From Eubacteriales bacterium SKADARSKE-1 (GTDB lineage Bacteria; Bacillota; Clostridia; Oscillospirales; Acutalibacteraceae), in the NCBI GenBank assembly GCA_030920305.1, contig JARLUB010000004.1:43558-107557 (forward strand): DNA of 64,000 bases, written 5' to 3'. The notes under the pieces are model-generated. The model was not told the origin of the DNA. It made no database searches and saw only the letters and a list, made by a program, of their open reading frames with translations. Of this stretch, positions 52,027 through 61,699 are shown one piece after another (the first letter of the stretch is position 1; each line of letters begins with the position of its first letter). Position numbers and translations under genes: made by a program.

Positions 52027-52809
52027 TTAAAATTTTCTAAATTTCTCATATCGCCTATTTAGCATTTCAGAAACAGGCATATTTTTATATTTATTAAGTT
52101 TTTCTAAAATAAGCTTTTTTATATTTTGAGCTACAGATTTTGGGTTTTCATTCATATTTTGTGGCTCTTTAATTATATTGTCAATAATTCCATATTCCAT
52201 TAAGTTGTGAGCTGTGTTTTTAAGTAAAGCAGCGGCTTCTTTTTCGCGGCTGGAATCTTTCCATAAGATATTAGCGCAAGCTTTTGGAGAAATCACTCCA
52301 AAAGTTGAGTTTTCTAGCATGATCATTTCATCTGCTACAGAAATAGCAAGAGCGCCGCCACTTCCTCCAGACCCAATAAATATACTGATTATCGGAACTT
52401 TAAGATACATCATTTCCATTAAATTATTAGCAATGGCAGAGTTTTGCCCGCGCTCTTCCGCAGAATCACCAGGAAATGCACCAATTGTATCAACAAAAGT
52501 GATAATCGGCCTATTAAATTTTTCTGCTTGTTTCATAGCACGAAGAGCTTTTCGGTAGCCCTCAGGGCAATTCATAGAATGATGATAAATTGCATCGTCA
52601 CGAATAGTTTTTCCACGCATTTGCCCAATAATAGTAACCGGAATATTGTTTAGCATACCTATTCCAGTTAAAATTGATTCGTCGTCCCCAAAAAATCTAT
52701 CGCCATGCATTTCTATAAAATTAGAAAATATTAAATTAATATAATCAAGAGCGTTTGGGCGAGTGAAAATAATAGGATTATCTAATGGTTGCTCAACTAT
52801 CTTTTCCAT
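52027..52809 (-). CDS. accA: Acetyl-CoA carboxylase carboxyltransferase alpha subunit
   Basis: Contains ITFVDTIGAFPGDSAEERGQ and IGSGGSGGALAI. Confidence 0.9.
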   Translation of the reverse strand: MEKIVEQPLDNPIIFTRPNALDYINLIFSNFIEMHGDRFFGDDESILTGIGMLNNIPVTIIGQMRGKTIRDDAIYHHSMNCPEGYRKALRAMKQAEKFNRPIITFVDTIGAFPGDSAEERGQNSAIANNLMEMMYLKVPIISIFIGSGGSGGALAISVADEMIMLENSTFGVISPKACANILWKDSSREKEAAALLKNTAHNLMEYGIIDNIIKEPQNMNENPKSVAQNIKKLILEKLNKYKNMPVSEMLNRRYEKFRKF

Positions 52810-54817
52810 AAAATCTCCTCTCGTGAATTTTTAAGATTTTGCTAATTATACCTTTTAACTCATTTTTATCAGCTACAATATCTACCATGCCATGCTTTTG
52901 TGCATATTCTGCCGTTTGAAAAGTATCGGGAAGTTTTTTATTTAACGTTTCTTCAATGATTCTTCTGCCGGAAAACCCAAAAACAGAGCCACTTTCTGCA
53001 ATTATTATGTCCGACAGAGAAGCAAAACTAGCAGATACTCCACCAAGGGTAGGGTTAGTTATAATTGATATATAAAGTAAGCCACAATCACTATGCTTTT
53101 TTACTATTGCGGCGGTTTTAGCCATTTGCAAAAGTGAAAAAATGCCTTCTTGCATACGGGCGCCACCTGAAATGCAAACACCTATAACGGGTAATTGTTT
53201 GTCAATAGCTAATTCAAAAGCTTTTGTAACTTTTTCACCTACAACCCGGCCCATAGACCCCATCATGAAATTGCCATCCATGGCAAAAAACACAACATCT
53301 ACACCCAAAATTTTTGCAGTTCCATATATAACAGCTTCATTTTCAGATGTTGAATTCATAGCGTGATTAAGTTTTTCACTGTATCTTTCAAAATCTATGA
53401 TATCGTGTGAAATCATATCTTTATCATATTCAATAAAACTGTTTTTATCTGTTAGCAAAGCTACTCGTTCTCTTGCTGATATATATTTCTTATTATAAGG
53501 TTTAAATAAATTCATAAAATTTGTATTGTGAGAATGATTTTTAAAAGTTTCGTTGTTTAAAATTTGTTTGTGAGTTTCTATATTTGTGCCAATACCGTCT
53601 ATTTCAAGTTGATTAAGTGCAGATAACATTTTTTTGAAAGCTAATTTTCTTGTGTTGCCATGAACAATTAATTTACCCAATAGTGAATCATAAAACACAG
53701 GGACATTATAGCCTTCATATAAGAAGGTATCGAATCTAGTGCTTTCAGTTTTTGGAATGATTAGCTTTTTTATAATGTTTTCAAAATTAGCATTTTGAAA
53801 ATTGATTCTACATTCAATTGCAAACCCAGAAAATTTTATTTGAGGCTGAGTTATAGGCAAAGGGTTTCCAGCAGCAATTAAAATTTGTAATTTTATTAAA
53901 TTAAGGTTAGTTACCATTTCTGTTATGGCATATTCAACCTGCAGCCGGCAATTCATTTCCATAAAATAAAAAGAGCCGGTACTATCCATTAAAAATTCTA
54001 AAGTGCCAGCACCAACATATCCGGTTTTTTGAATAGCATTTATACACATGCTGAAAAGTTCTTGACGTTTGATATTGTTTATCTTAGCGCAGGGGGTCTC
54101 TTCGATTATTTTTTGATTGTTAACTTGAACAGAGCAATCTCGCTCACCAAGGCACAAAACGTTGCCTTGTTTATCTGCTAACATTTGTACTTCTACGTGG
54201 CTAACCTCTGTCAAATATTTTTCAATATATATTTTATTGCTATTAAAAAAATTTTTTCCTTCATCAACTGCAAAAATAATAGCTTTTTCTAAATCTTCTT
54301 CTGCGTGTACAATTTTAATACCTTTTCCGCCGCCACCGCAGCGAAGCTTTATAATTATTGGATAGCCTATTTTTTTAGCAATGCTCTTTATTTTAGATAT
54401 ATCATTTTCTGCGAATTCACCCGGTATAACTGGAACCCCTAAATTTTTCATAGTTTCTTTTGCAATGATTTTATCGCCCATATTTTTTAATATTTCAGGT
54501 GGTGGGCCAATAAAACAAATATCGTTTTCTTGGCATAAAGCGGCAAATTCATAATTTTCAGATAAAAAGCCGTAACCTGGGTGAATGGCTTGAGCACCAC
54601 AAGCTACAGCTATTGAAACAATGGCTTTCATATTAAGGTAGCTTTCTTTAGCGGGTGATGCGCCAATGCAATAGCTTTCGTCAGCCAACTTTGTATGTAG
54701 CGAATTTTTATCAGCTTCTGAATATACAGCAACGGTTTTGATGCCTAGGGAATGGCAGACTTCTATTATTTTTACTGCAATTTCGCCTCTATTTGCAATA
54801 AGTATTTTAGAAAACAT
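52793..54817 (-). CDS. accC/accD: Fusion protein: biotin carboxylase (AccC) plus carboxyltransferase beta (AccD-like, no N-terminal Zn-ribbon)
   Basis: The N-terminal ~440 aa are MFSKILIANRGEIAVKIIE...GGGGKGIKIV...EMNCRLQVEY. The C-terminal ~230 aa are ARERVALLTD...MGSMGRVVGEKVT...GGARMQEG...GGVSASFA. Confidence 0.85.
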   Translation of the reverse strand: MFSKILIANRGEIAVKIIEVCHSLGIKTVAVYSEADKNSLHTKLADESYCIGASPAKESYLNMKAIVSIAVACGAQAIHPGYGFLSENYEFAALCQENDICFIGPPPEILKNMGDKIIAKETMKNLGVPVIPGEFAENDISKIKSIAKKIGYPIIIKLRCGGGGKGIKIVHAEEDLEKAIIFAVDEGKNFFNSNKIYIEKYLTEVSHVEVQMLADKQGNVLCLGERDCSVQVNNQKIIEETPCAKINNIKRQELFSMCINAIQKTGYVGAGTLEFLMDSTGSFYFMEMNCRLQVEYAITEMVTNLNLIKLQILIAAGNPLPITQPQIKFSGFAIECRINFQNANFENIIKKLIIPKTESTRFDTFLYEGYNVPVFYDSLLGKLIVHGNTRKLAFKKMLSALNQLEIDGIGTNIETHKQILNNETFKNHSHNTNFMNLFKPYNKKYISARERVALLTDKNSFIEYDKDMISHDIIDFERYSEKLNHAMNSTSENEAVIYGTAKILGVDVVFFAMDGNFMMGSMGRVVGEKVTKAFELAIDKQLPVIGVCISGGARMQEGIFSLLQMAKTAAIVKKHSDCGLLYISIITNPTLGGVSASFASLSDIIIAESGSVFGFSGRRIIEETLNKKLPDTFQTAEYAQKHGMVDIVADKNELKGIISKILKIHERRFYGKDS

Positions 54818-54864
54818 TTTGGTTTCACCACCTATACATTGAATATTTAAAAGTCAAATACAGA

Positions 54865-60733: not shown

Positions 60734-60952
60734 AAAAAACCCACCTTTTTTATGATCAAATATACGTATATATTTGTTTATAATGTTTAATTATCAATTA
60801 TATACTTGTGCATAATAATTTTTTAAAAAATTCAAATAATATGATATAATTATACAATAAGAAGTTTTGTTGTGCAATACCTATAATTCAATTAAAAACA
60901 AGGTAAGGAGAAGCTTTTCAGAAAAGGTAAATCTGATAAGCTAAAGAAACAC

Positions 60953-61699
60953 ATGTTTAGCTTAAAAAATAAGGTAGCAGTTGTAACGGGAGCGTCTCGT
61001 GGAATAGGTCAGGCAATAGCAATAAAGATGGCTGAAAGTGGTGCTGATATTGCGTTGATCTATGCTAAGAATGAAAAAAAAGCGAATAAAGTTAAATCGA
61101 CTATAATTAATATGGGTCAAAAGGCAATTACATATCAATGTGACGTTTCAGACTTTGATGAGAGTAAGATGTTAATATATAAAATAATGCAGGACTTTCA
61201 AACTATAGATATATTGGTAAATAATGCGGGAATCGTTAAGGATAATTTGCTTTTTTCTATGACAAATGAGGATTTTAATGAAGTTATAAAAGTAAATCTA
61301 AATGGCACTTTTAATATGATTCATCATACTTATTTGAATTTTGTTAAAAAGAAAAATGGACGAATAATAAATATATCTTCAATACTAGGTGTTTGCGGTA
61401 GTAAAGGTGGAGCAAACTATGCAGCTTCTAAAGCGGGAATCATAGGGCTTTCAAAGTCTGTTGCTAAAGAGTTAGCAGCCTTTGGTGTTACTTGTAACGT
61501 TATTGCACCCGGATATATAAGAACAGATATGACAAATGGCTTAAGTGATAGTTCAAAAGAAATATTTGCAAAGGAAATTCCTTTAAAGAAATTTGGCGAT
61601 GCCGATGATATAGCAGCAGCAGCTGTGTTTTTAGCATCGGAAGAATCTAAATATGTGACTGGAGAAGTTTTAAAAGTGGATGGCGGATTGTTGATGTAA
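60953..61699 (+). CDS. fabG: 3-oxoacyl-ACP reductase (SDR)
   Basis: Contains VVTGASRGIGQAIA, NNAG and YAASKAG. It is divergent from the KS operon. Confidence 0.9.
   Translation: MFSLKNKVAVVTGASRGIGQAIAIKMAESGADIALIYAKNEKKANKVKSTIINMGQKAITYQCDVSDFDESKMLIYKIMQDFQTIDILVNNAGIVKDNLLFSMTNEDFNEVIKVNLNGTFNMIHHTYLNFVKKKNGRIINISSILGVCGSKGGANYAASKAGIIGLSKSVAKELAAFGVTCNVIAPGYIRTDMTNGLSDSSKEIFAKEIPLKKFGDADDIAAAAVFLASEESKYVTGEVLKVDGGLLM

Follow-up and report, generated by a model that had tools for sequence, protein, structure and literature searches.

Does a bacterium that carries genes for FabF-, FabZ-, FabD- and FabG-type enzymes, and for acetyl-CoA carboxylase (ACC), necessarily use them to make its fatty acids? 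The question is raised by an eleven-gene cluster in a 64,000-nucleotide stretch of DNA from Eubacteriales bacterium SKADARSKE-1, called the window here at its full length (GenBank assembly GCA_030920305.1, contig JARLUB010000004.1, positions 43,558 to 107,557 of the forward strand). The cluster (RUMPE_01040-01050) encodes an active ketosynthase (KS), a shorter KS-like partner, an acyl carrier protein (ACP), a set of chain-processing enzymes, a complete ACC and a tandem-domain protein of the GNAT (Gcn5-related N-acetyltransferase) family. It is probably not the ordinary fatty-acid synthase (FAS) of the cell. The reading favored here, at a rough probability of 0.55, is that it specifies a dedicated synthase of acyl chains, which draws on malonyl-CoA made by the cluster itself, together with a tandem-GNAT N-acyltransferase that lipidates ribosomal peptides.

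The source genome is that of Candidatus Vesiculincola pelomyxae, a spore-forming member of the Acutalibacteraceae whose host is the amoeba Pelomyxa schiedti, in the vesicles of which it lives (Treitli et al. 2023, PMC10579272). The partner, KS and GNAT of the window match proteins of Eubacteriales bacterium SKADARSKE-1 at 100% identity. The genome of 1.41 Mb is 85% complete and provides no de novo synthesis of amino acids or nucleotides (PMC10579272).

Architecture of the cluster

An earlier note on this DNA, made from the sequence alone, described one minus-strand operon with a divergently transcribed FabG gene. Gene content, order and strands hold for all eleven genes at 52027-61699, and the Cys169, His302 and His337 residues of the KS are intact. 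The start codon of the partner gene begins with the final base of the stop codon of KS, which is the 1-nt overlap first described. The features of the cluster, in the order in which the operon is read, are listed below; the FabG gene and the intergenic region come first.

60953-61699, plus strand: FabG-type 3-oxoacyl-ACP reductase (ketoreductase, KR), RUMPE_01050, divergent; scores 306.5 against the TIGR01830 equivalog cut-off of 297.75
60734-60952, no strand: intergenic region between the divergent GNAT and FabG genes; each strand has promoter-like sites
59858-60733, minus strand: tandem GNAT, 291 amino acids, RUMPE_01049, with two Pfam GNAT stretches
58601-59842, minus strand: active KS, 413 amino acids, RUMPE_01048, matching PF00109 and PF02801, with Cys169-His302-His337
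57687-58601, minus strand: dead KS-like partner, 304 amino acids, resembling a chain length factor (CLF), RUMPE_01047, with a sub-threshold PF00109 match
57275-57682, minus strand: FabZ-like 3-hydroxyacyl-ACP dehydratase (DH), RUMPE_01046, PF07977 at 76 bits and NF000582 at 112.2 against a cut-off of 113
56945-57199, minus strand: ACP with a DSL motif, RUMPE_01045, PF00550
55961-56926, minus strand: FabD malonyl-CoA:ACP transacylase, RUMPE_01044, TIGR00128 at 319 bits against a cut-off of 261
55375-56004, minus strand: short BirA-like biotin-protein ligase, 209 amino acids, TIGR00121 at 143.7 bits over model positions 1-170 of 235
54911-55336, minus strand: AccB with an EAMK motif, RUMPE_01042, PF00364 and TIGR00531
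52793-54817, minus strand: AccC-AccD fusion, 674 amino acids, RUMPE_01041, matching accC models at residues 1-436 and the accD model at 443-666
52027-52809, minus strand: AccA carboxyltransferase alpha, RUMPE_01040, the last gene of the operon, TIGR00513 at 321.1 against 319.3

Curated NCBIfam cut-offs are passed by FabG, FabD, AccA and the BirA domain, and missed by 0.8 bit in the case of the FabZ-like DH, whose best matches in the Protein Data Bank (PDB) are ordinary FabZ proteins. KS and ACP fail; every NCBIfam ACP model scores the cluster ACP under its cut-off. The ACP gene probably starts at the ATG at 57184, because the published call is 240 bp long. The AccD half of the fusion aligns to positions 54-280 of the 285 in its model, so that the N-terminal portion is missing. 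The biotin ligase has neither a helix-turn-helix domain nor the C-terminal part of its model, and its gene overlaps fabD by 44 nt.

Between the divergent genes, matches to a generic -35/-10 consensus occur at 60876-60849 and 60826-60797 on the minus strand and at 60822-60850 on the plus strand; these are pattern matches. Just upstream of the ACP gene, at 57248-57220 on the minus strand, is a near-consensus promoter-like site (TTGACC, 17 nt, TG-TATAAT; 11 of 12 matches), which suggests that the ACP-FabD-ACC genes may have a promoter of their own within the operon. An inverted repeat with a 16-bp stem (51991-52028) lies directly past the accA stop codon, and on the other side FabG is followed by an L10 leader and rplJ-rplL.

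A Pfam scan of the open reading frames (ORFs) of at least 110 amino acids finds nothing resembling FabH, FabI/K/L/V, a thioesterase or PlsX in the window, as the earlier note had stated. FabI/K/L/V are the enoyl reductases (ERs).

The ketosynthase and its inactive partner

The KS scores 337.9 bits against the FabF equivalog model TIGR03150, whose cut-off is 493.75, and all other KS models likewise place it under their cut-offs. Its best PDB match is 9s5h_B at 328 bits, and it matches both Iga11 and B. subtilis FabF at 269 bits. The partner carries Ile148 at the position of the catalytic cysteine, as read from a hidden Markov model (HMM) alignment to 9s5h_C (a MAFFT alignment of KS and partner sequences is unreliable). 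Across the partner family this position is occupied by I, R, K, L or V, and no cysteine or histidine is invariant.

Sequence and fold place the partner among inactive KS subunits. A profile of the partner family finds 9s5h_C first in the PDB at E 8e-21, and every other match has E 1e-4 or weaker. The AlphaFold2 (AF2) model of the partner (pLDDT 80, pTM 0.85) has as its best fold matches the CLF subunits AntE and Iga12, with E values of 1e-13 to 1e-11 and a TM score of 0.7.

The entry 9s5h, and 9s5i, the ACP-bound form of the same entry, are taken to be the amxFabF2/amxFabFmut heterodimer of anammox bacteria, because a Ca. Scalindua protein shares 76% identity with 9s5h_C over 143 aligned residues. 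The preprint on this pair names no PDB codes in its text, and we infer the correspondence. The single subunits are reported to be inactive, while the heterodimer decarboxylates malonyl-ACP and forms acetoacetyl-ACP (Barends laboratory, preprint 10.64898/2026.05.19.726425); initiation in anammox is therefore independent of FabH. By analogy, the KS and partner of the window would also form a heterodimer.

Two hallmarks of a highly reducing type II polyketide synthase (PKS)-like cassette are found here. An active KS is encoded beside a truncated, inactive partner of CLF fold, and KR and DH occur without ER in a cassette whose homologues belong to specialized metabolism. The earlier note had preferred the logic of a type II PKS to that of a housekeeping FAS, and this preference is borne out by the KS score (338 against 494 bits), by the CLF-like partner and by the company kept by the relatives described below, which lie in clusters for RiPPs (peptides made by the ribosome and modified after translation) and in PKS or non-ribosomal peptide synthetase (NRPS) clusters.

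Conservation across related loci

Synteny of the core GNAT-KS-partner-DH-ACP extends to at least 13 further loci (14 with the window), and FabG, FabD and ACC genes also recur. This comparison is the gene-order check proposed with the original description, and because of the shared synteny the arrangement is no chance juxtaposition. DH is present in all 14 loci and FabG adjoins the cluster in 11. GNAT is not detected in the loci L002, L004 and L013; the contig ends beside the cluster in L002 and L013.

Two layouts occur. In the first, FabD-(BirA)-AccB-AccCD-AccA lie downstream of the core and FabG is divergent. In the second, a divergent AccD-AccA-FabD-FabG operon lies upstream of the core. The AccC-AccD fusion, with the N-terminal part of AccD missing, is kept in the window, in L001-L005 and in L020. 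The other locus type has a separate AccD of 240 amino acids and no AccB or AccC nearby. A biotin ligase gene is found in five type-A loci and in L020, and L002 has BioY as well; the biotin requirement of ACC accounts for BirA and BioY.

No ER, FabH or thioesterase is encoded in any of the 14 loci. Nor is there any further recurrent neighbor family near the cluster in these loci that might be a hidden ER, thioesterase or exporter. Synthesis of biotin (pimelate) or lipoate was considered as the purpose of the cluster and rejected, since both routes need an ER too.

Compared with its closest relative, L020 (80-97% amino-acid identity), the cluster of the window has all eleven genes intact, with dN/dS values of 0.02-0.30. 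These values are comparable to those of rplJ and rplL in the same comparison, and the value for ACP is 0.02. A decaying relic is rejected on these grounds, and the cluster is taken to be functional.

The system is rare. A word-indexed search yields 13 homologues of the partner, and six cluster representatives are found at E<1e-30 among 1.84 billion proteins. The partner family occurs in 11 of 185,579 GTDB species; these are all uncultured Clostridia of the gut or rumen, with Clostridium sp. CAG:557 among them. Its distribution within a large family is rare and patchy.

Relatives in RiPP and PKS/NRPS clusters

The nearest KS relatives outside the family (46-52% identity) are found in RiPP or PKS/NRPS contexts, and no ER is evident there. 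The next-nearest KSs (46-50% identity) are proteins of about 600 amino acids, in which the KS is fused to a homologue of the N-terminal half of the partner (37% identity over 161 amino acids). Such fusions lie at L014:10001-11824 and L015/L016:10001-11848, and about 30 similar proteins exist; the contigs that bear them are 1.4 to 4.7 Mb long. No description of a RiPP-linked KS~partner fusion cassette was found in the literature surveyed.

The fusions are part of ACP-KR-KS~partner-DH cassettes that sit beside genes for LanM, a GNAT of about 305 amino acids, DUF7005 and an ECF sigma factor. LanM is present in L014-L016, and the ECF sigma factor in L014, L015/16 and L018. In L015/16 there are additionally Nif11-leader peptides, one of which passes TIGR03798 at 37.7 bits, a YcaO gene, and an ABC transporter gene after LanM. 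The proteins of L014, L015/16 and L018 are homologous to those of the window: identities are 42-45% for ACP, 37-40% for KR, 47-52% for KS, 37% for the partner, 36-40% for DH and 29-33% for GNAT.

The genes of L018 run in the order ECF sigma factor, a 68-residue peptide with a leader ending in ...LSDDDLLDVAGG, GNAT, DH, KS, partner and ACP, with a KS 52% identical to that of the window and the Gly-Gly peptide directly upstream of GNAT. Other cassettes dispense with GNAT. One of these, L019 from Paenibacillus sp. FSL K6-1096, lies inside a PKS/NRPS cluster, and L017 is another.

The tandem GNAT and the precursor peptides

The AF2 model of the GNAT (pLDDT 86) has tandem GNATs, for example 2wpx, VipF and MshD, as its best fold matches. 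A P-loop, QSIGPA (68-73), is found in the N-terminal domain only. A word-indexed search gives 10 homologues, and the family appears confined to this system. Beyond it, the GNAT of about 305 amino acids in the LanM/Nif11/YcaO clusters and in L018 shares 29-33% identity with the GNAT of the window (E 1e-40 to 1e-47). A lone tandem-GNAT homologue (46% identity) is found at L021/L022:10001-10897, beside a spoIIIA operon and the gene of an Rce1/CPBP-type protease.

In L003 (Clostridium sp. CAG:557), L005 and L006, GNAT sits with FabG and precursor peptides on the strand opposite to KS: downstream of FabG-GNAT, in the same orientation, come one or two peptides of about 95 amino acids. These peptides have a Nif11-like leader, a Gly-Gly motif and Lys-rich, Cys-free cores of 26-30 amino acids, for example ARKHKGSDSYFDSNGNLYTTSKGKKA. 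GNAT thus travels with precursor peptides rather than with KS. The tandem GNAT is the proposed acyl-ACP:peptide N-acyltransferase, which would act as the off-loading enzyme of the system.

The absence of FabH, and the place of GNAT as the first gene of the operon, invite another role for the enzyme. It could be the chain initiator that replaces FabH, either as a malonyl-ACP decarboxylase or as an acetyl loader, like the loading GNAT domains of CurA/GphF or MadA/YiiD, which bears a GNAT. GNAT-fold decarboxylases that serve in priming are reportedly established (work attributed to Gu 2007, Skiba 2020 and Whaley 2021). However, GNAT is not needed for priming, because the homologous cassettes of L017 and L019 exist without it, and the homologous anammox heterodimer primes alone. 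GNAT also tracks peptides and not KS in L003, L005 and L006, and no PKS loading GNAT is among the 50 fold matches listed. A priming function is very improbable.

A second question is what the acyl group is transferred to. The earlier note had proposed a dedicated pathway that ends in acyl transfer to an amine, and the presence of GNAT beside Nif11-like and Gly-Gly peptides in sister loci fits this. The probable acceptor is a ribosomal peptide and not a free amino acid or a homoserine-lactone-type substrate.

The pathway might still be dedicated and its acceptor not a peptide, in which case GNAT would acylate an amino acid or another small amine, a component of the cell wall or spore, or the head group of a lipid, and the product would be an N-acyl amide lipid. 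This is akin to the N-acyl amino acid idea of the earlier note. The window and seven other loci lack a precursor beside the cluster, and the GNAT homologue of L021 stands alone. Fold neighbors of GNAT include glucosamine N-acetyltransferase, MshD and a histidine acetyltransferase with an N-myristoyl-histidine complex, and the cluster lies beside spore-coat cotJ genes in four loci. Nevertheless, precursors directly follow or precede GNAT in L003, L005, L006 and L018, and the GNAT homologue is found within the LanM/Nif11 clusters L014-L016. The host genome, moreover, has many orphan Nif11 and NHLP precursors and no annotated RiPP-modifying enzyme such as a lanthipeptide synthetase. A non-peptide acceptor is accordingly regarded as improbable, though less so than a role of GNAT in priming.

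The host genome and its fatty acids

The published gene table of V. pelomyxae (PMC10579272), which covers the 85% complete genome, lists the cluster KS as the sole KS and has zero entries for fabH, fabI/K/L/V, 'enoyl', 'nitronate', 'dioxygenase' or 'thioesterase'. It does have a second acpP elsewhere (RUMPE_00816), expressed at 113 transcripts per million (TPM) against 0 for the cluster ACP. The annotation further includes plsX, plsY, plsC, acpS and two DegV/FakB-type fatty-acid-binding proteins, which together with acpP constitute a route for the use of exogenous fatty acids. Three FabG-like short-chain dehydrogenases/reductases (SDRs) are annotated. Also present are seven Nif11-leader precursors and one NHLP-leader precursor, expressed at up to 1608 TPM. 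Of two annotated ABC transporters for bacteriocin export, one has a peptidase domain, and a lanthipeptide synthetase is missing from the published annotation.

The host appears to have no other FAS and seems to live on scavenged fatty acids. Its own lack of a FAS would explain why the cluster carries a private malonyl-CoA supply. The earlier note had allowed that this might be the only fab locus, with fabH and ER genes just outside the window. The first half holds, since no other KS locus is annotated; the second does not, for fabH and ER are annotated nowhere. Being the only annotated KS locus in a genome with no annotated fabH or ER, the cluster leaves room for a housekeeping or dual role.

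The strongest form of such a role is that the cluster is the only FAS of the organism, a FabH-independent FAS II in which the KS pair primes by malonyl-ACP decarboxylation and also elongates. The ER would then lie elsewhere, be of an unrecognized type or be encoded in the missing 15% of the genome, and GNAT would tap the resulting acyl-ACP pool, much as the GNATs of selidamides rely on primary metabolism. This would account for the sole KS, and for the retention of 10 kb under purifying selection in a reduced genome of 1.4 Mb. Several of the enzymes (FabG, FabD, AccA and the BirA domain) pass curated FAS or ACC thresholds, with FabZ 0.8 bit short, the anammox homologue begins fatty-acid synthesis without FabH, plsX is available to use acyl-ACP, and one of the three FabG-like SDRs could be a FabL/FabI-like reductase. 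On the other side, an ER is neither annotated in the genome nor encoded in any of the 14 loci, and the scores of KS and ACP stay under the curated thresholds for FabF and ACP. The separate acpP is much more strongly expressed (113 TPM against 0), and the scavenging route is complete, with two DegV/FakB-type proteins, PlsX, PlsY and PlsC. The distribution within a large family is rare and patchy, and the nearest relatives examined all lie in secondary-metabolite clusters. That the cluster is the only FAS of the cell is therefore considered unlikely.

A bolder variant of the favored reading takes the lack of a FAS at face value. In it, a FAS-less bacterium keeps ACC, biotin ligase, FabD and FabG solely to make a natural product with a polyunsaturated chain, which GNAT attaches to Nif11-type peptides, and the KS/dead-KS pair that builds the chain on a private ACP shares a broad clade with the ladderane pair of anammox bacteria. 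If so, Clostridia would have their first hybrid between a type II PKS-like synthase and a RiPP, carried by species of the human gut and the rumen and by an endosymbiont of an amoeba. We put this forward tentatively.

Peptide lipidation by a dedicated synthase, the favored reading, has to be set against a number of observations that weigh against it. The standing of the cluster KS as the sole KS of the genome is one. Expression in the amoeba is another: GNAT, partner, DH, ACP and AccB are at 0 TPM, FabD, AccCD, AccA and KS are weak at 10-36 TPM, and FabG reaches 82 TPM, which contrasts with the 548-1608 TPM of the Nif11 precursors. The Nif11 genes RUMPE_01115, 01123 and 01124 are at least 65 genes from the cluster and possibly on another scaffold. 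The window and 8 of the 14 family loci have no precursor peptide beside the cluster, and exporter, protease or processing genes are absent next to the sister clusters that do have peptides. These peptides are themselves divergent; those of L005 and L006 score 17-23 bits against TIGR03798 (positions 7-68 of 68), whose cut-off is 32.3, and the two L003 peptides give no match to this model. Finally, the L021/L022 GNAT homologue has no KS cassette within 10 kb.

A proposed pathway

The following pathway would fit the genes of the cluster. ACC, composed of AccB, the AccC-AccD fusion and AccA and biotinylated by the cluster ligase, would make malonyl-CoA. FabD would then place malonyl groups on the cluster's own ACP. 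The active KS, in a heterodimer with its dead partner, would prime and extend the chain, and priming may proceed by decarboxylation of malonyl-ACP, by analogy with the homologous anammox pair. FabG would reduce each beta-keto group and the FabZ-like enzyme would carry out the dehydration. Because no ER belongs to the system, the chain is probably unsaturated, and perhaps it is partly hydroxylated.

In the last steps, the tandem GNAT would transfer the ACP-bound acyl group to an amine. The likeliest acceptor would be a lysine side chain or the N-terminus of a Nif11-type peptide with a Gly-Gly site, and the acylated peptide could be exported through an ABC transporter that contains a peptidase. 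What we infer in this scheme, from homologues and gene neighborhoods, is the heterodimer, how the chain is primed and what it consists of, the donor and acceptor of GNAT, and the link to the Nif11 peptides of the host.

Comparison with known systems

No description of such a cluster was found in a literature survey of incomplete coverage, in agreement with the earlier note, which did not recognize the gene combination. A paper in RSC Chem Biol of 2026 on RiPP N-acyltransferases has nothing on KS- or ACP-linked systems. Several known systems nevertheless resemble parts of this one.

The selidamides (kamptornamide, phaeornamide and the nostolysamides) are RiPPs with Nif11 or NHLP leaders in which a GNAT attaches fatty acyl groups to lysine or ornithine side chains (Hubrich et al. 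2022, PMC8784127; nostolysamide preprint PMC13060382). The tandem GNAT with a P-loop in its N-terminal domain only resembles NpuN as it is described. The Nif11-like leaders with a Gly-Gly site and the cores that are Lys-rich near their ends, as seen in the sister loci, are also shared, and so is a bacteriocin-export ABC transporter with a peptidase domain, which V. pelomyxae encodes. A lanthionine synthetase is optional in the selidamide family too. In contrast to the selidamides, GNAT is accompanied here by a complete private acyl-chain synthase and ACC. The leaders of the sister loci fall under the curated Nif11 threshold, and there is no adjacent precursor in the window.

The goadvionins and lipolanthines (GdvG) and the lipoavitides (LpvE) are actinobacterial RiPP hybrids with a fatty-acyl or polyketide tail. 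Their clusters likewise combine RiPP genes with FAS- or PKS-type enzymes of their own and a GNAT that joins the acyl chain to the peptide. GdvG takes only ACP-bound acyl groups, and LpvE uses acyl-CoA. These systems employ a type I PKS or FabH-type enzymes and have enzymes that form avionin or AviMeCys, whereas the system described here has a KS/CLF-like pair, no FabH, Cys-free cores, a private ACC and a host among the Clostridia.

Highly reducing type II PKSs, such as those for ishigamide (Iga11/Iga12) and aryl polyenes (ApeO/ApeC), share an active KS with a shorter, inactive and translationally coupled partner, and KR and DH without ER. The model of the partner matches AntE, with AntDE as the structural reference, and Iga12. 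However, the partner is shorter here (304 amino acids) and barely related to Iga12 by sequence (E 0.77), and the DH is FabZ-like and not ApeI/ApeP-like. Aromatic type II PKSs differ further: their CLFs have a conserved glutamine at the position of the KS cysteine, where the partner has Ile148, and no cyclase or aromatase is encoded at the locus.

Both subunits find their best PDB sequence matches in the anammox ladderane Cluster I (KS at 328 bits, partner at E 8e-21). That cluster, too, has a hydrophobic residue at the catalytic-cysteine position of the partner, an ACP of its own and a FabZ-like DH. Yet amxFabFmut is full length at 412 amino acids, the DH and ACP of the window are not specifically close to those of anammox bacteria, and host and product are different. 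No radical-SAM or phytoene-desaturase-like gene occurs in the cluster of the window or in the related loci. A ladderane-type pathway is rejected because radical-SAM and desaturase genes are missing and DH and ACP are not specifically anammox-like.

The acc genes of the cluster form the tail of its operon, as they do in clostridial fab operons. The cluster shares with canonical FAS II the presence of FabD, FabG, a FabZ-like DH, AccB, AccC, AccD and AccA, mostly above curated thresholds. Unlike canonical FAS II, it lacks FabH, ER and PlsX at the locus, has a KS and an ACP that do not reach the curated thresholds, includes a dead KS partner and a tandem GNAT as additional members, and joins AccC to AccD in one protein; the housekeeping acpP is elsewhere.

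In summary of these comparisons, the system works like the RiPP/fatty-acid hybrids, with a synthase that has the build of a highly reducing type II PKS cassette. What sets it apart is the combination of a KS/dead-KS pair, a FabZ-like DH, a private ACC with biotin ligase, Cys-free Nif11-like cores and a Clostridia host.

Candidate acceptors and other genes in the window

The Nif11 precursors of the genome are the obvious acceptor candidates. The window itself contains the following candidates.

3437-4960, minus strand: protein with a Nif11-type leader (...EDLESISGG), candidate acceptor; PF07862 at E 2e-5, TIGR03798 at 27.6 bits, sub-threshold
8178-8405, minus strand: peptide of 75 amino acids with a Gly-Gly leader (...LSDSNLNNVSGG|AVQVDH...), candidate acceptor; HMM match at E 7e-4
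33403-33657 and 33847-34101, minus strand: two paralogous peptides of 84 amino acids with Gly-Gly leaders, found by motif scan; candidate acceptors or unrelated bacteriocins

The first is an ORF of 507 amino acids in which the leader, ending in ...ELGEEDLESISGG, is followed by a hydrophobic segment. The remainder is an acidic, proline-rich region of about 400 amino acids, with two near-identical repeats of about 100 amino acids and a poly-proline run. A RiPP-type leader on such a long 'core' is unusual. The gene of an ABC ATPase lies beside it (2647-3339, minus strand).

The HMM that detects the peptide at 8178-8405 was built from the precursor peptides of the sister loci, and the match spans the Gly-Gly motif and the core. 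This peptide and the pair at 33403-33657 and 33847-34101 have double-glycine leaders of the form ...LSxxDISxVxGG, and the cores of the pair are about 52 amino acids long. Peptides like those at 33403-34101 are found in four copies about 3 kb from the L005 cluster and once just after accA in L003.

Spore-coat genes lie close to the cluster: cotJC (and cotJB) are found at 62993-63881 on the minus strand of the window and near the cluster in L009, L010, L011 and L020. The cotJ genes are among the most highly expressed in the published V. pelomyxae table. On the other side, directly downstream of accA, is a gene for a protein of 298 amino acids (50812-51708, minus strand) with no Pfam or NCBIfam match. 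Its apparent expression is very high, as its length fits RUMPE_01039 at 1782 TPM. It was considered as a part of the system and rejected, being conserved in no other locus.

Four tandem paralogous small genes (231-632, 897-1318, 1561-2061 and 2198-2617, plus strand) share a signal-peptide-like N-terminus, MKK[FI]LLGILIFTMAFNLVGG; two ORFs make up the second, interrupted copy, and none of the four has a Pfam match. A Cys-rich ORF of 92 amino acids (35501-35779, minus strand) matches in its length of 279 bp RUMPE_01032, which at about 30,000 TPM in the published table is among the most highly expressed genes of the symbiont. In a surface protein of 2014 amino acids (38832-44876, minus strand), a VWA domain accompanies seven isopeptide domains of the Spy0128/FctA type. 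The stretch at 40-42 kb has 48% G+C, compared to about 32% for the window.

Implications

If the favored reading is true, the cluster would define a new, genetically encoded family of lipopeptides in uncultured gut and rumen Clostridia, including Clostridium sp. CAG:557 of the human gut, and in the endosymbiont of a protist. RiPP lipidation is so far known with acyl chains from primary metabolism, or with type I PKS or FabH-type add-ons. It would here be extended to a KS/CLF-type synthase that is self-sufficient even in malonyl-CoA. The cluster would also offer a second, genetically simpler setting for the study of the KS/dead-KS heterodimers of ladderane biosynthesis, including their FabH-independent priming, and the tandem GNAT could become a tool for placing unusual acyl groups on ribosomal peptides. 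For genome annotation there would be a warning, in that the presence of fabF, fabZ, fabD, fabG and accABCD in Clostridia with small genomes would be no proof of fatty-acid synthesis.

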